IMG/VR virus record: IMGVR_UViG_3300030376_001553
Location: 1 to 32,562 of that record
Direction: 5' to 3' (one strand)
Length of the DNA: 32,562 bases
DNA from: a virus
Lineage: Duplodnaviria; Caudoviricetes
Shown here: one piece after another, positions 1,965-32,562 of the stretch
Position numbering within the stretch: the stretch's first letter is position 1
Layout of the letters: each line of letters starts with the position of its first letter
Program-made: the position numbers and the translations under genes
The notes under the pieces: generated by a model
What the model was told of the DNA's origin: nothing
What the model saw: the letters and a program-made list of their open reading frames with translations, nothing else
Databases searched by the model: none

Positions 1965-4900
1965 TACTCAACACCTCCATCTAGTTCTAAACGGTTTTTA
2001 AGGATTAACTCTCTCATGTCTGCTGGCATTGGGAATTGAAGATCTTCAGGGGTTTCGCTACGAATCAACCACTGTTCTCTGGCTAACTCTATTATTCTAT
2101 CCCTTTCATTCTTAAGAATAATCCTTCTCATATTATTTTCTCTATCCCAGTCAGCATTGACACTTGTATCAAGACCTAATACTGGTCCTAGTTTAGACGG
2201 AGAATCCAGTCCAGGTCCAGCATTTTTATAGTTAGGATCATTAACTACTGATTTAAAGTAGTCATAAGCTCCTACATACTCCTTACCTCTACTATACGTA
2301 GTAAACTCAGTATTTAAGAAATGATTAAAGTCATTTAATACTCTATCGCTCATAACAACTCCACCTAAAGTTTTTGATCTATATAAAGTATCTTTAGGAG
2401 GTGGTATTAAATTAGCTAACATTTCTCTTCCTACTGGATCTTCAGTACCAGAAGGAAACGCCCAATATCTACCTAAAACAGCTTGTAATGGGTAGAAAAA
2501 TCCAGAATGATTAGCTTCAACTGTTTGTCCAGGTTTTCCCCACCAAATAGCTTGTCTACTTCTTTGTCTATTTTCTCCAAAAGTTTTAAAGAAACCATCT
2601 GAACTATCTAATGAATCTGAGGCTGCTATTATTCCATCAGCTATTAAGGCAGGTAAGTTATATTCGTAAGCTCTACCTAAGATGTTAGCTGCACCTCCAA
2701 ATATATTACCTTGAGGTTCATTTACATCCTTACCTTTCCATATACGTTCAGGTACTGTATAACCAGGACCAAACTTACTACCAGGATTAGCTGGTTTACT
2801 AGGATCAAAACCTTCCCAAACAAACTTACGTAAACCAGTATGAGGATCACCTACTTTAGCAGCAAATTCAGAAGCAATTCTTTCTAAAGGCTCTGTATTA
2901 CCTGTAGTAGCAGCAGATAAGGCTCTTTGTACTTTATCAAAACCTACCATTGCAGGTGTATCTAGAATTGTTAAAGCTGTGCCTACAATTGCTAAATTAG
3001 CTAAATCACCATCAGCAGTTTTACTACCAAACTGAGTGTAATCCCTTAAATTTGTTTGGAAAGCTAAAGTTTGACCTAGTAAGGGTATATAACGATAAGG
3101 AATCTCTTTACCATTAATGAGCCATGTATAAGGCTTTCTAACACCCTTGGCGTATTTATAAGTATATCTTTGATCGCCTGTTATATCTTGGTTTCCATCG
3201 TGAGTTAGGAAGAAGGCTGTAGCTTGAATACCAGTAGCTAAAGCTAAAGCACCTTGAGCTTTGATACGTACTTTAGGATCTGGACTTGTGTATTTACTTT
3301 CAAAATCAATAATAGATTGCCTCCACTTAGCAGGATCGCTATTAGTTTTTGCTGCTAAAGCATCCATCGCTTTAGTTAAAGCTTCTCCTGAGATAATTGT
3401 TTCATCATTAAAAGCTTTCTTTAAACCAATTCTTGTTAGATCAGCACCAGCTTGAACTAATTCTAAACCGTAGGCTAACTTAACAGCTCTTTTAATACCG
3501 TTAATAGGTGAAACAAGGAATGGGAAAATATCTCTACCAAACAACCTTAAATATATGTTTTTACTTTTACGGAAAGAATTAATAGCATCTTCTACATTCT
3601 TAAGTCCACCAGTTAATTCTGTTGTTAAGTTTACAGCTCTAGTTAGTTCTAAGATTTGTTCATCTAATACGGCATGACCTATAGTTTCAGCGTCATAACC
3701 TGCTTTTACAGGTGCATAAACTGAAGATAACTTTTCCTTATAAAGTTTATTAATAGTATCAGCACGATCAGCTTTATCTATCTCTCCTTTAGATATTAGA
3801 TCGTCTACTGTTCTAGATATACGTCCTCTTATAGAAGCATTTGCAAAGAAAGCTGTGTTAAATTCATCACCTGTAGCAGCCATTTGGCCCCACAAGCTTA
3901 GGTTTACTTCTTCTCCACCAGGATAATAACTCTTAGCACCAAAGCCTTCATCTACACCACCTAATACCTTTCTAGCTTTACCAGTTAAACCCATAGTAGC
4001 GGTAGTTGTACCACCCAGTATGTTTCTACCAACAGCACTTCTTTTCTTCCAAGCTTCAGCAGGAGCTAAGTAATCATGGAAAACTTTAGTTAAAACTCTA
4101 GCTTTATTAAACGTCTCAAATATCTTGCCATGATCCTTTCTGTTTAAAACATATTTAACAAAAGGTACTTGCATAGTATCGCTCTTTAAATCTTGAAGTA
4201 TGGCTTCTTCTCTCATACGTAAACCACCTTTTCTAAGTTCCCAAGCTTTATCAGCAGCTTGGCTTGCATCTGTAATTGATTTACCGTAAACAAATCTGGT
4301 ATAAGCAATATCAAAAGCTTCACCTATTACGTGTCTGAGATTATTTAATGTAGCTGCAGCTTGTTCAGCTTCTTTTAGACTTTCTTCTGCTCTTGGAGCT
4401 TCTTTAAGAATATACTTAGCAAATTTAGCGTCCATATGTCCTCCTACTGTACGACCTGTTAATTCACCAAAAGCTTCTAGACCACCTTGAATAGGAATAG
4501 AAAAATGAATAGCAGGGTTACTTAGAGGTGATCCAATTTGGAGTCTTGCTAAAACAGAGTCTCCTGTAACTTCAAGTTCCTTCAGTTTTGTATAATCACC
4601 TTTAGATTCGTATATTTTATCAATTAGTCTTTCTAAACCATCCATTTCTGTAGCACTAATTTCTGCACCATCAGCTACTTTTTGGAAGAAAGCTCCTATT
4701 GTTTTATTCTTATCAGCTACAGCTTTGTTATACTTATCAGCCCAAGCCTTCCCATAGTCTTCTGGGGAATCACCTAATTTTAATAACCCTTTATTCCATT
4801 CACTAAAGAGTTCTGTAGGATCAGTCGCTCTAAATCTAAGTCTATTCCTACGTGCCAAGATGTTAAGTAAATTACCTGAAGCATAGAAAGTTTCATTAAC

Positions 4901-17135: not shown

Positions 17136-17157
17136 TGTTATCTCCTCAGAGGCAACA
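17136..17157 (-). promoter_or_regulatory. Stem-loop in the capsid 5' leader
   Basis: Minus strand TGTTGCCTC-TGAG-GAGATAACA (one G-U pair, one mismatch) in the scaffold-capsid intergenic region. Confidence 0.45.
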
Positions 17158-17186
17158 ATTAATACATAAGCTACTTTAATAATAGC

Positions 17187-24510: not shown

Positions 24511-25015
24511 TAATATCTTTCTCAGGTTCTTGAATATTATCTGCTTTCTTTAAATACTCAACTGCTTTTGTGACACCTTCTAAATTGTCACCTAGTTTTC
24601 CGATACCTACATTACAGTCCCAACAAATCCATCCTCTATGTTCTTTAGTGCCGTGATCATGGTCCCATTGAAGGTTTCTAGTACTATCACCACAACATTC
24701 ACATGGAGTTCCTGGGTCTGGAGTTACTTGATGCTTACGGATTCTGTGATAAAGATTTAGGTTATAACGATAACACTTTATACATTCAGACCTAGAACCA
24801 ATAGCACCTTGTCTGTAGAAATCATCTAAAGATTTTTCTTGCTTACAAGTTTTACAAACCTTAGTGGCATTCGGCCCAGTTGTTTCCAATTTTATATTCC
24901 GACTCAACTGCAATTCGCATTCTAAGCTGTTCTCCTGCTTTTTTTGATGCTTCAGTAGCGATGAGTGCGAGCTGTTCTGAAAATTCAGCTCTAACTGCAA
25001 ATTGGATTTCGTCAT
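24491..25015 (-). CDS. Endonuclease VII-like (His-Me finger) nuclease, possible homing endonuclease; start uncertain
   Basis: CECCG..DHDH..RGWICWDCNVGIG.LGDN..AVEYL, plus an N-terminal Zn finger CKTC..F..CIKC. Confidence 0.88.
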   Translation of the reverse strand: MTKSNLQLELNFQNSSHSSLLKHQKKQENSLECELQLSRNIKLETTGPNATKVCKTCKQEKSLDDFYRQGAIGSRSECIKCYRYNLNLYHRIRKHQVTPDPGTPCECCGDSTRNLQWDHDHGTKEHRGWICWDCNVGIGKLGDNLEGVTKAVEYLKKADNIQEPEKDINGICDI

Positions 25016-26847: not shown

Positions 26848-28426
26848 TTGAGTGTTCCTCTGGTACTTCCAGCATTCTGCCTGTGGCCTCATCGTACTTG
26901 ACTTGGCCGCATACCCCTAGCCAACCACTGAATCTGTTTTTTAACACCCTGACTTTACATCCACTATCGGCTACTTGTTGGTCTCTCTCTAAAGAAAGGA
27001 CAATATCACTAAGACAAGCAATACTTGAACTACCTCTAAGGCTACTAATCCTAGTCTGTTCTCCATCCTCATATCCCTTATTACCTTGTGGTCTTCTTAA
27101 ATGACTGACCAATATCATCCCACAACCAGTCTCTTCTACAAAAGATCTAAGCTGAGTTACTGTGTAGTCAATCGCTCTGCGTTCGTCACTGCTTTGTTCC
27201 AGACCTGAGACGAGTATCGATAGGTGATCGAAAATAACCCAATCACAATTGAGGCTGATAACGCAGTGCCTAATACGATTAAGTAACACGGTAGGATCAA
27301 TAGAGCCAAAAGAGTCGTACAAGTAGACTCTATTGTTCCCAAGGGTTTGGTCGAACGCTGTTGAGATTTCTTCATCGGTAAGTTCTCCTTTATCAATGTG
27401 GATAGGACGGTTGAGGTGGATGCCAACGAAACGTCTAGCAGTCCTTAAGTTATTCTCTTCTAAATTAATAGAAGCAATTGTTTGATTCTGTTTTACGGCA
27501 AGACTATAAGCAATTTCATTTACAAAAGTTGACTTGCCTGTGCCAGTTGCCCCAGTGATAGTACAAAGCTCCCCCTTACGTAGCCCCAGAAGCCTCTTGT
27601 CTAGGCACTCATAGCCATAACTAACACTGTCTACCTTTGGGTCTTCAAGGATTGCTTCCTTTAGTTTATTAGCATTAACAATACCATCAGGTTCATACTC
27701 CTTAGCATTGAACACCATGTCTGTAATAGCTCTAGTATCTCTAGCTTGTAAAGCCTCACTAGCATCCTTATAACCCTCTATAAAGCCTATCTTTCCCTTT
27801 CTGGGGGGTAAGAGTTGAATGTCTCTAGCTGCTGCCTTCTGTCCTACCTCATCATTGTCATAACAGAGTATGACTGTCTCAAAGGTTAGTAACCAAGTCA
27901 GTTGTTCCTTAATAGTTTTCTGTCCAGACTCAGCACCATTAGGTAGAGAAACACAGGGCCATCCATCTCTTGTTTGCATATAAGATAGACAATCCTTCTC
28001 CCCTTCAAAAACTACTAAGAGTTTACTGTTACCTCCCCATAGTTCCTGACCTAAGAATCTATTATCTATATTCTTACCAATCTGTAAAAACACTTTGTTA
28101 GCTTTCCTTACCTTATAACCAGAAAGAACTCTGTCCTTACTGTAGATAGGCCAGAAGTAAGCATCTTCACCCCCATGCTTTCCTTTTATATAACCTGCTT
28201 TCTTACAAGTAGCAGCTTTAAGGTTACGTCTAGGGATGTCTACATATTCACCTATAACAGGTTGAATATCTAATGGATTTGTCGAGGTCATTGGAAAAGG
28301 GTTAGTAATGTTTGAATAAACTTGATAATTACAATTAGGAGTAAAACACTTTTGGCTGCCGTCTTCCCAAACGGCTAAGTTATTCTTACTCCCACATTTA
28401 GGGCAAGGTAAATGATTTACACTCAT
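26822..28426 (-). CDS. Primase/helicase (T7 gp4-like)
   Basis: Zn finger CPKC..CFTPNC, TOPRIM EGEKD and DND, Walker A GATGTGKST, DHLS, LVSHLRR, LRGS and KNR. Confidence 0.97.
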   Translation of the reverse strand: MSVNHLPCPKCGSKNNLAVWEDGSQKCFTPNCNYQVYSNITNPFPMTSTNPLDIQPVIGEYVDIPRRNLKAATCKKAGYIKGKHGGEDAYFWPIYSKDRVLSGYKVRKANKVFLQIGKNIDNRFLGQELWGGNSKLLVVFEGEKDCLSYMQTRDGWPCVSLPNGAESGQKTIKEQLTWLLTFETVILCYDNDEVGQKAAARDIQLLPPRKGKIGFIEGYKDASEALQARDTRAITDMVFNAKEYEPDGIVNANKLKEAILEDPKVDSVSYGYECLDKRLLGLRKGELCTITGATGTGKSTFVNEIAYSLAVKQNQTIASINLEENNLRTARRFVGIHLNRPIHIDKGELTDEEISTAFDQTLGNNRVYLYDSFGSIDPTVLLNRIRHCVISLNCDWVIFDHLSILVSGLEQSSDERRAIDYTVTQLRSFVEETGCGMILVSHLRRPQGNKGYEDGEQTRISSLRGSSSIACLSDIVLSLERDQQVADSGCKVRVLKNRFSGWLGVCGQVKYDEATGRMLEVPEEHSNGYATPDF

Positions 28427-29013
28427 AAATCACTCCATTGATCGCACATGGCTTGGGCTATACCATCGTAAGTTTTACTGCGTTTCTTCCAGCGATCCTT
28501 AGATGGTCCTAGTTTGTTCTGACCACTAGGTGTTTGATTCTCCCAATATCCACATTCAGGCTTGGGTAATATTTTTGTAGGGTTTAAATGGTTTAAGCCC
28601 CTGAGCCATAAGCAAGTTCGCTTAGATTCTGGATGACCAAATTCATACGGCTGGATTATTTGGCTTGGCTTACCAAGTTTTGTTTTAGTAGAAATAACAC
28701 TGACAGGATTCTCAATACACATCTTTGGTATTGGTGCATCCCATAGAGCAGTGACAAAATCTAAAGCTCTTTGTTGCCTACCATCTGCAATCTTCTTAGC
28801 AAAATGAGCAGCACCTGAGACAGCTATATCCGTACAGGGTGGGTGTAAAATCGCCAAATCCCAGTCGTTATCTATGATGTCGAAGATGTTTCCTTGGTAA
28901 TGTGGACCTTCTACTTCAGTAGGGAGTAGGTCACAACTCCAAGCATCATGTCCTGCTGCAATGAACTTGTTTCTGATAACGCCAGAATGTTCGCAGCCAA
29001 TTAAAACTCTCAT
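28423..29013 (-). CDS. Compact DNA cytosine-C5 methyltransferase-like protein, 196 aa
   Basis: Start MRVLIGCEHSG at 29013 with GGAGG upstream; motifs SCD, HPPC (catalytic PC), ENP, QPYEFGH, K.T.LW and RSKT. Confidence 0.75.
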   Translation of the reverse strand: MRVLIGCEHSGVIRNKFIAAGHDAWSCDLLPTEVEGPHYQGNIFDIIDNDWDLAILHPPCTDIAVSGAAHFAKKIADGRQQRALDFVTALWDAPIPKMCIENPVSVISTKTKLGKPSQIIQPYEFGHPESKRTCLWLRGLNHLNPTKILPKPECGYWENQTPSGQNKLGPSKDRWKKRSKTYDGIAQAMCDQWSDL

Positions 29014-29050
29014 TAAAAAACCTCCAAGGTGGGGATTGATCCTTGGAGGC
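29014..29050 (-). terminator. Terminator-like hairpin that includes the MTase ribosome-binding site
   Basis: Minus strand GCCTCCAAGG-ATCAATCCCCA-CCTTGGAGGT then TTTTTA and the ATG. Confidence 0.75.
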
Positions 29051-29078
29051 TTGGTAACCCTTTCACTTACCAACTGAA

Positions 29079-29521: not shown

Positions 29522-30091
29522 TTAGAAATCAATGTCAACATCAGAAGTACTCACTGGCTCTACCTTTGGTTTAGCTTGAGTGAACCCTTTCTGTTTCTTA
29601 AACGCACTCTTAATATCAAAGTTCTCACCTCCACTGTCTTTACCACCAGTAGTTACAGCTTCTAATACCTGCATCCCTAATGGTGCAAACCTTACACCAC
29701 CTTTAGATGCTTTAGGTGAGATGAACTTAGGCTTAAGCTCTACCTTTACTACTGAACCTTCTCTTAGTTGTAGATCATCAGCTAAAGGTACTAATGAACC
29801 ATCTACTACTGGAAAAGGAAACTCCTCATACTTTGGTTTAGCTGTAATACGAACAGTAATTGAACCATCATCATTAGTAATCCAAGGGCCATCAAAGAAG
29901 GCTCTACCTGATCCTCCGTTGCTCTTATACCACTCACAAGCTTTGTCATAATGATCTTCTAATTCATTTAAAAGCTTATCTGCGTTCTTAGTGACTCTGA
30001 CTTTCATTCGGTAGTCAGATGGTTGACCTTGATAAGTTGGTTCCTCTAAATGATGGGGAACAAAACCTTCAAGAGTTCCTGTGATTTGCAT
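29522..30091 (-). CDS. Single-stranded DNA-binding protein (gp2.5-like)
   Basis: Probable start MQITGTL at 30091; FPVVD..EGS.V..GV....MQV; acidic tail ending in Phe (DVDIDF); upstream of endonuclease I. Confidence 0.85.
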   Translation of the reverse strand: MQITGTLEGFVPHHLEEPTYQGQPSDYRMKVRVTKNADKLLNELEDHYDKACEWYKSNGGSGRAFFDGPWITNDDGSITVRITAKPKYEEFPFPVVDGSLVPLADDLQLREGSVVKVELKPKFISPKASKGGVRFAPLGMQVLEAVTTGGKDSGGENFDIKSAFKKQKGFTQAKPKVEPVSTSDVDIDF

Positions 30092-30157
30092 TTCGTGATA
30101 GTTGAAAGGACTACTGAAAGATAAACAGAAGAACCACCTAAAGGTAACTCTTACTGT

Positions 30158-30175
30158 GACACTTATTAAAGTGTC
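30158..30175. promoter_or_regulatory. 18-bp palindromic operator-like site, copy A
   Basis: GACACTT-ATTA-AAGTGTC, a perfect inverted repeat upstream of the SSB/replication operon; related copies at 31869, 31902 and 31927. Confidence 0.7.
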
Positions 30176-30264
30176 CACTTTAAACAGCCTTATACTGCCT
30201 TATAATTAAACTATAAATGTATTTATAACCGTACTCTTAAGCAATATTAGAAGTTTAAACAGTA

Positions 30265-30270
30265 TATAAT
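30265..30270 (+). promoter_or_regulatory. Candidate sigma70 -10 element for the plus-strand cassette
   Basis: TATAAT 24 nt upstream of the ATG at 30295; a second TATAAT at 30201-30206; no clear -35. Confidence 0.5.
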
Positions 30271-30294
30271 GAGTGGGTACTTATATAACAACTA

Positions 30295-30654
30295 ATGAAG
30301 TTCGCAATAGCTCTAGCTGCCCTGCTAGGAGTAGGAACAGCTCCAGCCCTTGCTGGTACTTACGTCAACGTTGAGTCCAATGCATCTTACGTTGGGAATG
30401 ATTATAAATCTAGAACTACGGACGTTCACATAGGATTTGAAGGAGGTGGTCCACTTGCTACTTATTACATCCAAGGCGGCCCTGCTTTAGTTAATGGCGA
30501 TGCCGTTGATGGTTCAACAGAGTTCTCTGGTAAGACAGGGATCAGCATAGCTGCTACTGAAAGACTAGATGTCTATGGCGAAGTATCTCTACTAACTGCT
30601 GAAGATACAGACAACAGCTACGGTACTAAAATAGGAGGAAAGTTTAAGTTCTAA
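30295..30654 (+). CDS. Small secreted outer-membrane beta-barrel-like protein of picocyanobacterial/cyanophage type
   Basis: Signal peptide ending in ALA; alternating beta-strands (YVNVE, DVHIGFEG, YYIQGGP, LDVYGEVS); C-terminal KFKF resembling a BAM signal. Confidence 0.75.
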   Translation: MKFAIALAALLGVGTAPALAGTYVNVESNASYVGNDYKSRTTDVHIGFEGGGPLATYYIQGGPALVNGDAVDGSTEFSGKTGISIAATERLDVYGEVSLLTAEDTDNSYGTKIGGKFKF

Positions 30655-30659
30655 CTTCA

Positions 30660-30857
30660 ATGACAATCACAACCGAATACGGTAAACAAAACATCTTCGC
30701 AAACGAACCTGCTATTGAAGTTATGGACAATCACAACCACGAAGGAGATCCAATGCACATTGCAGAGGAACTCAATGGCCGCCTAGCTATGATGGGTTTC
30801 GTAGCTGCTCTAGGTGCCTATATAACAACTGGACAACTTATACCAAACATTTGGTAG
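30660..30857 (+). CDS. hli: High-light-inducible protein
   Basis: AEELNGRLAMMGF chlorophyll-binding motif, TGQLIPNIW tail and a phage-type N-terminus TTEYGKQNIFA.EP. Confidence 0.97.
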   Translation: MTITTEYGKQNIFANEPAIEVMDNHNHEGDPMHIAEELNGRLAMMGFVAALGAYITTGQLIPNIW

Positions 30858-30873
30858 AATAAATCTAATTGAG

Positions 30874-30882
30874 TGTTAGTCT
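30874..30882 (+). promoter_or_regulatory. Candidate extended -10 promoter for the riboswitch transcript
   Basis: TG-T-TAGTCT would place the transcription start at ~30889-30890, the 5' edge of the riboswitch. Confidence 0.5.
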
Positions 30883-30887
30883 TCGCT

Positions 30888-30941
30888 TCCGTTCATCCTT
30901 TGTGGACGCATGACACCTAATCATGGAACGGGGATTAGGTT
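30888..30941 (+). ncRNA. Downstream-peptide / glutamine-II riboswitch
   Basis: CGTTC (30890-94) pairs with GAACG (30926-30); small hairpin TCC-TTTGT-GGA; pseudoknot ACCTAATC (30915-22) with GATTAGGT (30933-40); followed by an RBS and a YRG peptide. Confidence 0.9.
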
Positions 30942-30955
30942 TTAGGAGACTGACC

Positions 30956-31057
30956 ATGAGTCCAGTTGAACTACAAGCTCGTATCAAAGAACGAGTAAAG
31001 GCTAAGAAACAAGTAAAACTTACATACAGAGGTTTAACTTACATAGTCAAACGCTAA
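30956..31057 (+). CDS. 33-aa DUF4278-like (YRG-motif) peptide
   Basis: MSPVELQARIKERVKAKKQVKLTYRGLTYIVKR; RBS AGGAG at 30944-48; LTYRGxxY motif. Confidence 0.88.
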   Translation: MSPVELQARIKERVKAKKQVKLTYRGLTYIVKR

Positions 31058-31061
31058 GATC

Positions 31062-31087
31062 AGGGGAGCCAAACGGCTCCTCTTTTT
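31062..31087 (+). terminator. Intrinsic terminator after the DUF4278-like peptide
   Basis: AGGGGAGCC-AAAC-GGCTCCTCT then TTTTATTT. Confidence 0.9.
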
Positions 31088-31097
31088 ATTTGGAGAA

Positions 31098-31256
31098 ATG
31101 CAAGAGTTTATCACTCTAGATACCGAACATCTAACGGACACCCACAGCTACGCTAGAGAGCGTTACAAGGACGCTATAGGCGATAGGGATAAAGACTACT
31201 GGGAAGGCTATTTGGACGCTCTGGACTCCGTATATCAGGCTCAGAAGACGACCTAA
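31098..31256 (+). CDS. Unannotated 52-aa acidic protein
   Basis: GGAG then ATG; MQEFITLDTEHLTDTHSYARERYKDAIGDRDKDYWEGYLDALDSVYQAQKTT; the stop overlaps the convergent ORF. Confidence 0.65.
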   Translation: MQEFITLDTEHLTDTHSYARERYKDAIGDRDKDYWEGYLDALDSVYQAQKTT

Positions 31257-31408
31257 AGGTTCTTACGGTGCTTCTCGTCTTGAGCATACTTCCATTGCTC
31301 TATTAATCTTGAGGTTGCCTCATTCCTTTTCTGTTCACCCCAGTCCTCTATCTCTGCTAACTTATTTAGTCTCTTTAAGTGGTCTAAAAGCCCATCAGCT
31401 TTAGTCAT
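31253..31408 (-). CDS. Hypothetical 51-aa protein
   Basis: Probable start MTKADG at 31408, overlapping the stop of the upstream 129-aa ORF. Confidence 0.6.
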   Translation of the reverse strand: MTKADGLLDHLKRLNKLAEIEDWGEQKRNEATSRLIEQWKYAQDEKHRKNL

Positions 31409-31790
31409 TGGTATCTTGACCTTCGTATAAGGACACAAAATCTCCATTAGGGTCTAAATAGAAACAGTTCGTATCTCTTATTTTGACATAATCTTCCTGC
31501 AAGAGTTCTATAAAAGCACCTACTAAGGCTTGACAGGTACTAGCCTCTAGTACTGACTTATGTAAGTCTGTCTGTGCCTCTACTACTCCCTCCATAAGCT
31601 CTGTATTATCTAAACCCCATAGGATCTCATGGTCCTCATCTGCATCTGCTTCTAGGTATTCAATAGCCTTATGTGACTTCCTTTCTAAAACTTTCATCCT
31701 TGCTAAAAGTAAGGGTAGGTAGTCTCTAGCCACTCTCTTAAGTGGTCCATAGAACTTATCTTTTGCTGTTGCTTTTGCCATAAGTGCCAT
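31401..31790 (-). CDS. Hypothetical helical protein, 129 aa
   Basis: Open frame directly downstream of the operator cluster; no motif recognised. Confidence 0.7.
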   Translation of the reverse strand: MALMAKATAKDKFYGPLKRVARDYLPLLLARMKVLERKSHKAIEYLEADADEDHEILWGLDNTELMEGVVEAQTDLHKSVLEASTCQALVGAFIELLQEDYVKIRDTNCFYLDPNGDFVSLYEGQDTND

Positions 31791-31868
31791 TAAGCTTCAC
31801 TCACTAACCAATTTAATACAGGATTGCCAGTCACGTGGTGTATTACTATCACGACCTCTTAAGGCGTG

Positions 31869-31944
31869 GACAATTTGAAAACTGGCACACCGAACTTAAC
31901 AAACAGTTACATAACTGTCCACTTGTGACACTTAACAAACTGGC
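31869..31944. repeat. Three clustered copies (B-D) of the 18-bp palindromic site
   Basis: GACAATT-TGAA-AACTGGC (31869), AACAGTT-ACAT-AACTGTC (31902) and GACACTT-AACA-AACTGGC (31927). Confidence 0.8.
31896..31913 (+). promoter_or_regulatory. HLR1 (RpaB-binding)-like direct repeat
   Basis: TTAACAAA-CA-GTTACATA against the consensus (G/T)TTACA(T/A)(T/A)-N2-repeat: one mismatch. Confidence 0.5.
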
Positions 31945-31955
31945 ACATAGTAAAC

Positions 31956-31974
31956 GATAACGATAATCATTTTC
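31956..31974. promoter_or_regulatory. Fur box-like site
   Basis: GATAACGATAATCATTTTC matches the classical GATAATGATAATCATTATC at 17/19. Confidence 0.65.
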
Positions 31975-31984
31975 ATTCTATAGA

Positions 31985-32015
31985 TAATAAATAAGCCCCT
32001 AATGTTAGAGGCTTA
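31985..32015 (-). terminator. Probable terminator of the rightmost minus-strand unit
   Basis: Minus strand TAAGCCTCTA-ACAT-TAGGGGCTTA then TTTATTAT. Confidence 0.65.
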
Positions 32016-32023
32016 ATTAATAT

Positions 32024-32092
32024 TTAATTAGTAGTAGATGCTGCTGCTATATATAAAACAATAGGCAACATAAAGAGTATAAAGTAGTACAT
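32024..32092 (-). CDS. Possible 22-aa hydrophobic micropeptide
   Basis: MYYFILFMLPIVLYIAAASTTN; starts 2 nt after the upstream stop and ends just before the terminator. Confidence 0.4.
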   Translation of the reverse strand: MYYFILFMLPIVLYIAAASTTN

Positions 32093-32094
32093 AC

Positions 32095-32562
32095 TTACTG
32101 AGTTATGTTTAAATATATTCTTCTATGTGTTACCCATGTAATCGCTTGAACTGTTGATATTGAATATTTAGAATCTAAATCTAGATTTATTAATTTGGTT
32201 GCTATCTTATAATCTTGTTTAATTGTGTGCCTTAGTTTCTTACCAATAGCAGGAACATCCTTAAGCGATTGATAAACACCTAACCAGATATTGTAGGCAT
32301 GACCATCAATACAAACATCCTCCCTCCCTAATATTGAGTGAGTAAATTCTATAACCTTTGGGCCTTTTAGAATCTCTAAGACTGGCTTAAGTTTTAAATC
32401 ATTATCATCTAATTCTAAGATCTTTAAAGCTTTACTCTTATTAAGTGGATAAGTACAAACCGAAGTTTCTAATACGTCCTGAGCCTCACCATATTTAAAG
32501 ACTTTTATTAAACTCTCAGCATCAAAGCAGTTACGCTCCCATTTATTGTTTGGGCTAAGAGC
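32095..32562 (-). CDS. HhH DNA-glycosylase-like phage protein (DUF7178-like), partial, N-terminus outside the window
   Basis: Absent from the ORF track. 155 open codons: ALSPNNKWERN..LKGPKVIEF..I.G..VCIDGHAYNIW..QAITWV. Confidence 0.75.
   Translation of the reverse strand, partial: ALSPNNKWERNCFDAESLIKVFKYGEAQDVLETSVCTYPLNKSKALKILELDDNDLKLKPVLEILKGPKVIEFTHSILGREDVCIDGHAYNIWLGVYQSLKDVPAIGKKLRHTIKQDYKIATKLINLDLDSKYSISTVQAITWVTHRRIYLNITQ

Follow-up and report, generated by a model that had tools for sequence, protein, structure and literature searches.

A palindrome promoter predicted to put the replication genes of a polymerase-less, P-RSP2-like cyanopodovirus under host control

The 32,562-base linear virus contig IMGVR_UViG_3300030376_001553, analysed here over its whole length (the window; completeness 75% by CheckV), comes from a P-RSP2-like (outlier-clade) cyanopodovirus infecting marine cyanobacteria. 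We focus on the 2.4 kb upstream of its gene for a gp2.5-like single-stranded DNA-binding protein (SSB; 29522..30091, minus strand, ATG at 30091, PHROG 112), the first gene of the replication operon. With moderate confidence, we propose that the replication genes are read by the host sigma70 polymerase from promoters that combine a palindrome with a −10 box, and that the host protein PlmA is their likely activator. At the replication operon, host polymerase plus PlmA (PMM1637) would have taken the place of a phage promoter: the site at 30156 would drive the genes from SSB to DNA polymerase and, divergently, a cassette of an outer-membrane protein gene (OMP) and hli, and a second palindrome (24570-24591) would drive exonuclease to nrdAB. 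A glutamine riboswitch and a Fur-family box in the same interval would act separately from the palindrome promoters.

Promoters of the replication genes

The palindrome between SSB and the divergent cassette consists of two 9-bp arms around a 4-bp spacer (22 bp; 30156..30177) and is a predicted PlmA activator site. The predicted SSB −10 box, TATCTT (30118..30123, minus), lies 32 nt past it and shows TAnnnT conservation in the clade, and on the plus strand there are two candidate cassette −10 boxes (30201..30212), TATAAT at 30201 and TAAACT at 30207, the latter 29 nt past the palindrome. The second palindrome is followed by TAATAT 30 nt on (24534..24591 in all, minus) and precedes exonuclease-MazG-nrdAB from within the coding sequence of endonuclease VII. 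The sequence-only reading had pointed to sigma70-like −10 boxes and intrinsic terminators. The terminators hold up (5 terminator-like sites in the window, 1.9 expected), but generic sigma70 matches do not (4 against 8.4 expected); these fall below chance and become significant only through comparison with relatives.

Gene content, motif conservation, spacing and the sequence identity of the half-sites are all direct observations. The form GTGNCAVTT-N4-AASTGKCAC occurs in an estimated ~1,800 viral stretches and at least 161 loci. At 155 of 191 viral sites a TAnnnT starts 30-32 nt past the palindrome, while equal windows at offsets 0-27 hold 12-39. Using a scoring matrix built from the viral sites and counting scores of at least 3, we found the palindrome ahead of the clade SSB gene in 35 of the 39 dereplicated regions. 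A TAnnnT at 30-32 nt accompanies it in 31 of them, so that the combination of GTGNCAVTT-N4-AASTGNCAC and a −10 box is kept in 31 of the 39; before five other genes the combination was found in none of 133 regions. Before the exonuclease gene, 10 of 26 regions reach the score, in every case with TAnnnT at exactly 30. On the opposite strand of the SSB site a second TAnnnT peak appears at offset 30 (16/36 clade regions), which fits divergent use of this palindrome. Five polymerase-bearing cyanopodoviruses gave 0, 1 (weak, inside a tail gene), 0, 0 and 0 composite matches. The palindrome is very likely an activator site.

The palindrome with a −10 box at fixed spacing also occurs in named T4-like cyanophages and in the siphovirus Mic1. 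The T4-like phages carry it before small early genes, whereas in the window it heads the core replication operon of a T7-lineage podovirus. The early-promoter element of T4-like cyanophages is reportedly described by Doron et al. (2016, ISME J 10:1437). Passages of PMC11237433 and PMC10665884 contain nothing on this promoter. Copies number 8 in S-PM2, 47 in Mic1, 8 in P-RSM4, 4 in DSL-LC02 and 0 in P-SSP7. Because the sequences are related, neither these nor the preceding palindrome counts are independent events. In Mic1 (a Microcystis siphovirus, MN013189) the 47 palindromes form tandem groups in one 15-kb region (56815-72123).

The palindromes that the sequence-only reading had noted are present: besides 30156, there is an array at 31867..31946, with copies at 31867-31888, 31900-31921 (degenerate) and 31925-31946. 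Such an array recurs in 17 of the 46 regions that remained, after dereplication, of the 92 regions upstream of a conserved 129-amino-acid (129-aa) gene. A palindrome match at 27540, inside the primase gene, is probably due to chance. Between its terminase side and its early genes, P-RSP2 has a non-coding stretch (3300-3470) with another cluster, made up of palindromes, Fur-like boxes and CACGAC repeats.

The predicted reader of the palindrome

That these elements are promoters, which proteins bind them and any effect on infection we infer from the sequence comparisons. In Prochlorococcus, PMM1637, a PlmA homologue of the GntR family, binds and activates the CGRE1 element of yfr2/yfr4, whose RNAs increase during nitrogen starvation and at high light in strain MED4, and PlmA binds PII-PipX (PMC6191309). 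Because PlmA is tied to PII-PipX and its targets rise in this way, the output of the replication genes would follow the state of the host. CGRE1 and the phage site share an identical 9-bp half-site. In the CGRE1 promoter oligonucleotides (PMC6191309) one arm lies at about −64 to −56, an activating position in which the left phage arm would also fall if the predicted −10 box is right. The two differ in geometry, the CGRE1 arms standing back to back across 1-2 bp and the phage arms face to face across 4 bp. The junction of the upstream array (~31914-31933) resembles an everted CGRE1-type pair plus one extra base.

Both forms are found in host chromosomes. The back-to-back form is present in 47 of 301 cyanobacterial genomes (14 for a reversed-pattern control), among them 9 of the 11 under 2 Mb, mostly 54-60 nt ahead of the Yfr2 start. 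In 24 of 32 loci from picocyanobacteria, the four-base-spacer form lies 69-75 nt before plmA, their single-copy GntR gene, and the 4-bp spacer outscored six other arrangements; a −10-like box sits ~14 nt downstream of this conserved palindrome, which might indicate self-repression, a possibility not described in the text consulted. In genomes of the Genome Taxonomy Database (GTDB), the palindrome occurs mostly in Acidobacteriota and cyanobacteria (at least 122 loci of ~300); among 122 bacterial loci there are 79 matches with a −10 hexamer at 30-32 nt, and a Cyano-1 (Yfr2-family) RNA lies behind the palindrome in 10 of the 18 loci from cyanobacteria. One acidobacterial genome carries two PlmA-like GntR genes, each with a perfect palindrome 12 nt before its start. 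The palindrome is common in Acidobacteriota, although PlmA has been described as exclusive to cyanobacteria. We found no GntR gene in three near-complete clade records, S-PM2 or Mic1. Taken on its own, the identification of PlmA as the reader of the palindrome is probable.

Several observations weigh against our proposal. MED4 PMM1637 gave no shift of its own promoter (PMC6191309), and the back-to-back arrangement with 1-2 bp, to which the published binding data on CGRE1 are confined, is absent from the SSB and exonuclease sites. Most plmA sites are lopsided (scores 1-18), and the genomes that carry them are related; in 27 other cyanobacteria no score exceeded 4.5. Of 7 GntR loci from acidobacteria, 5 have no such palindrome. 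Within the phages, the exonuclease site falls inside a coding sequence, whose codons account for some of the palindrome; the SSB site of P-RSP2 is weak and not the best match of its scan; and no −10 box stands at activator spacing from the array at 31867-31946. P-RSP2 also has a perfect copy of HLR1, a motif considered below, between two Fur-like boxes. The proposed promoters do not account for the late genes, where the capsid gene alone offers a candidate element, a −10-like box and hairpin ahead of it.

Some of these points would suit a different reader. The promoters could be genuine host-polymerase promoters at which the palindrome is recognized by another host regulator of the LuxR/NarL type, as has reportedly been suggested for the Syn9 element, or by the phage's own 129-aa or 64-aa product. 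The difference in geometry from the tested CGRE1 and the lack of binding of PMM1637 to its own promoter would agree with this, and the 129-aa protein is clade-wide and has no assigned function. Its structural model, however, contains no helix-turn-helix, and the palindrome stands before plmA-type genes in two phyla. Since the palindrome is common to unrelated phages and host chromosomes, a host reader is indicated, and we regard a reader other than PlmA as unlikely.

A link between PlmA and phages was not claimed in the titles and abstract openings that we searched, which did not extend to subscription papers or supplements on bioRxiv. Should PlmA bind, a single host regulator would be common to cyanobacterial myo-, sipho- and podoviruses, and ocean nitrogen and light would be linked directly to phage replication. 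That the PlmA promoter makes infection respond to nitrogen or light is a tentative suggestion, which we hold with less than even confidence. The prediction joins a promoter, a named host protein and a ready assay: published work provides purified PMM1637, its R50A control and a reporter in E. coli (PMC6191309), and P-RSP2 has been isolated in culture.

Absence of an RNA polymerase gene

The gene content and order of the window are T7-like. On the minus strand the series reaches from tail fibre to SSB, and it includes DNA polymerase A and nrdAB. Among 50,697 phage records, the only match to its SSB was Prochlorococcus phage P-RSP2 (HQ332139), at 49% identity; the two genomes are syntenic throughout, with most shared proteins 47-87% identical. 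Three cyanopodovirus polymerases, one integrase and one MarR protein, used as queries, recovered each other in five control genomes and matched nothing upstream of SSB or elsewhere in the window, which bears out the earlier statement that the 2.4 kb lack both polymerase and integrase. The same queries gave a single 48-residue match in P-RSP2 (E 0.026), in agreement with the claim that this phage has no polymerase. Labrie et al. (2013) are said to have described P-RSP2 as lacking RNA polymerase.

The absence extends across the clade. There were zero matches to these queries in 126 clade loci and in 13 stretches of longer clade contigs. The polymerase profile PF00940, which matches P-SSP7, found nothing in four clade records at 89-100% completeness. 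From terminase to SSB, 34 uninterrupted loci (31 distinct) span 3.3-4.5 kb with a largest open frame of at most 253 aa. On these 31 distinct loci and the clade searches, polymerase loss is a clade trait. For this virus itself the absence rests on its relatives, since the window is only 75% complete; in close relatives, ~2 kb of small genes lie between the point where this contig ends and terminase. The dependence on host RNA polymerase that the sequence-only reading had deduced is well supported by the absence across the clade, and host polymerase almost certainly transcribes the whole phage genome.

The window combines T7-like order, P-RSP2 as nearest cultured relative and a DNA polymerase A gene with the absence of a single-subunit RNA polymerase. 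Autographiviridae are defined by an encoded RNA polymerase (PMC12361551); the defining gene was not found, and GenBank still files P-RSP2 in that family. Polymerase loss and the presence of a riboswitch, taken alone, are ordinary for the P-RSP2-type group. How polymerase-less T7-like cyanophages are expressed is not explained in the literature that we searched, and P-RSP2-like phages make up ~3-4% of cyanopodovirus reads (PMC9860041).

Riboswitch, Fur-family box and other motifs

The sequence-only reading had placed a glutamine riboswitch, a Fur-like box, an HLR1-like box and the palindromes in one nitrogen/iron/light sensing panel, arisen with the loss of the polymerase and tuning infection. 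The riboswitch is real: the Glutamine-II aptamer (RF01704) at 30887..30940 (plus) scores 52.6 bits against a cut-off of 33. Ahead of it lies a predicted extended −10 box, TG-T-TAGTCT (30874..30882, plus), which here has no upstream palindrome; behind it come a 33-aa DUF4278-like (IF17-like) peptide (30956..31057, plus; a weak Pfam match, E 0.028, below the cut-off) and the intrinsic terminator that closes the cassette (31062..31083, plus; terminator scan). Of 16 dereplicated loci, 13 show a TAnnnT 13 nt ahead of the core of the aptamer, and the riboswitch was found in P-RSP2 and in all 18 clade loci of a first scan. The minimum-energy fold of the riboswitch region is not unusual (z −1.0), which is uninformative on switching. 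With an aptamer that passes the Rfam threshold and a short, putatively DUF4278-like open reading frame (ORF) behind it, the unit resembles the type 2 glutamine riboswitch and the host Yfr6 (PMC6212724), from which the window's copy differs in being phage-borne, and phage glutamine riboswitches have already been published (PMC9004378).

The riboswitch belongs to an island that is common among cyanopodoviruses and also occurs in polymerase-bearing phages, in the psbA-capsid interval of P-SSP7 and next to the same barrel gene in P-HP1; relative to that psbA-capsid island, the window's copy has been moved and inverted to the former polymerase locus. One polymerase-less branch does not have it in this interval: clade loci without the cassette lack it in the DNA examined in 13 of 14 cases and have it elsewhere in one. 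Its own −10 box and terminator and its shifting location mark it as a movable unit with, likely, one target peptide, and it likely gates translation of the IF17-like peptide alone. In 18 of 27 relatives, but not in the window or P-RSP2, the riboswitch promoter has a palindrome of its own at activator spacing.

The Fur-like box likewise proved sound. Fur, HLR1 (the RpaB site) and NtcA sites were sought with their consensus sequences. The Fur-family box (Fur or Zur; 31956..31974) has 2 mismatches to the 19-bp consensus, with 0.002 such matches expected by composition, and the 19-mer is found within 4 mismatches in 38 of the 46 regions upstream of the 129-aa gene against 0.2 in shuffles. It shares with Fur-family operators the 7-1-7 inverted repeat in hexamer arrays, here ahead of a phage gene without a family. 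An exact long form of the box occurs in 9 viral stretches, of which 6 carry clade genes. In five small cyanobacterial genomes, 15 of 29 matches were inspected; ferritin genes follow 4 of these, in four of the genomes, and a ZnuA/ABC pair follows 1. The window's box agrees with the znuA-associated host box at 14 of 15 positions and the clade consensus also fits the ferritin boxes, so that either Fur or Zur may be the reader. No −10 box stands at a fixed distance from the box in the clade; in the window a candidate −10 box, TACTAT (31952-31947, minus), abuts it, as a −10-like box does in several relatives. A Fur-family repressor likely controls the 129-aa unit. Titles and abstracts within the literature scope given above contain no report of Fur boxes in cyanophages.

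The HLR1-like match (31896..31913, plus) exists, with one mismatch and overlapping a palindrome arm, but it is near chance: 0.25 matches within one mismatch are expected per window, and three of five polymerase-bearing control phages also have one. A copy made of two octamers is kept in only 2 of 46 regions, in opposite orientations. HLR1 was accordingly rejected as a conserved input and is likely incidental. NtcA boxes before the 129-aa gene are at chance level (8/46 against 5.6 in shuffles).

These results bear on the panel as a whole. All four matches lie inside 1.9 kb, the perfect HLR1 copy of P-RSP2 stands between Fur-like boxes at the equivalent place, many relatives carry the riboswitch unit with its own palindrome at activator spacing, and combined control by Fur and RpaB is known for host isiA (PMC6525291). 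Against a single panel, P-SSP7 and P-HP1 carry the riboswitch although they have a polymerase, the window's riboswitch has its own −10 box and terminator, it is missing from most cassette-less loci of the clade, HLR1 is hardly conserved, and the elements serve different, partly convergent units with terminators between them. We consider an integrated panel very improbable. What survives is the more general idea of input from host regulators, which likely enters through the palindromes (the SSB promoter) and the Fur-family box.

The upstream array of Fur-like boxes, palindromes and ACTATCACG could instead be a replication origin or a decoy for regulators, with PlmA serving as an always-available activator without tuning. 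The primary origin of T7 adjoins its polymerase gene. The missing fixed −10 spacing downstream of the Fur-like box, the occurrence of ACTATCACG in either orientation, the similar cluster in a non-coding stretch of P-RSP2 (~3360-3465) and the 47 palindrome copies of Mic1 could all be accommodated in this way. However, hosts have the same Fur-family box before ferritin and zinc-uptake genes, the −10-like box abuts the Fur-family box in the window and several relatives, and PlmA targets are stress-induced in MED4 (PMC6191309); we judge this alternative improbable.

Returning to PlmA and host polymerase, a fuller scheme can be drawn, which we regard as speculative and rather unlikely in its entirety. 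A T7-lineage phage would have abandoned its RNA polymerase and left the on-switch of replication to host PII-PipX-PlmA; next to it would stand an early gene gated by iron or zinc. Many relatives would in addition gate a glutamine-synthetase-inhibitor-like peptide twice, by PlmA at transcription and by glutamine at translation. Infection would be timed via three host sensors, following host nitrogen, redox and metal state.

The 9-mer ACTATCACG is a clade motif that lies just before the SSB start (30094..30102, minus), with a second copy at 31845..31853 (plus); the latter is kept, in either orientation, in 30 of 46 clade regions. It is conserved before SSB and the 129-aa gene, in many cases with CCACG repeats behind it. 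It was rejected as a late or phage promoter: the window has three exact copies and P-RSP2 two, none before late genes, and its orientation varies among relatives.

Late genes and gene map

Neither ACTATCACG-type nor palindrome-type motifs precede the late genes, for which 3-10 sequences per gene were examined for palindrome promoters, and the statement that no repeated phage-polymerase promoter is found there stands. A −10-like box and hairpin before the capsid gene (17136-17184, minus) are kept in 9 of 9 sequences examined, and the leader hairpin shows an apparent compensatory base-pair change in two, making this a candidate late promoter and leader element.

The 2.4-kb interval, whose genes the earlier reading did not mention, holds the divergent OMP-hli-DUF4278 cassette and three more small ORFs. 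The cassette begins with the cyanophage outer-membrane beta-barrel protein (30295..30654, plus; PF24653, E 1.5e-37) and the high-light inducible protein (hli; 30660..30857, plus; PHROG 178). Beyond its terminator lie a 52-aa ORF (31098..31256, plus) and, convergent to it, a 64-aa ORF (31253..31447, minus), both without a family and kept in part of the clade, and the 129-aa clade marker (31401..31790, minus; 91 homologues), also convergent to the 52-aa ORF. Upstream of these follow a 200-bp non-coding stretch, an intrinsic terminator between the upstream early genes and the 129-aa unit (31992..32015, minus; same position in relatives) and a DUF7178 gene cut by the contig end (32095..32562, minus; PF23802). 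The 129-aa protein is predicted to form a coiled-coil hairpin (model pLDDT 80); with no family, no Foldseek match at E<=0.001 and no Atlas match, it was rejected as a recognisable regulator.

Metagenome contigs match the region, one at 99.5% over 3.3 kb, which may share the sample, and two at 90%, and a misassembly of the layout is unlikely on this account. Contigs from RNA libraries cover parts of SSB, OMP, hli and hli-to-peptide and were not counted as evidence of expression: the covered shares are small, other hli genes pile on, two runs resemble one data set, and such contigs show neither starts nor strand, so that uncovered parts prove nothing.

P-RSP2 shares with the window the gene order, the absence of a polymerase, the divergent hli-riboswitch-peptide cassette before SSB and the Fur-like boxes ahead of the 129-aa gene. 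The window additionally has the OMP gene, a methyltransferase-like gene, the 52-aa ORF and DUF7178, and it differs in its stronger palindromes and reversed ACTATCACG. The P-RSP2 record annotates neither its hli, nor the riboswitch, nor the DUF4278 peptide, and repeats ~510 bases at both ends (1-520, 41745-42257). Another contig, of 57 kb, carries the nrdB-to-gp15 genes twice and, because of this repetition, is probably a wrapped assembly of a ~43 kb genome. The DNA methyltransferase-like gene (28423-29073) lies between endonuclease I and primase; it is 93-96% identical in relatives whose adjacent genes share only 60-85% and is missing in others, and this excess identity and patchy presence make it likely a recent mobile insertion.

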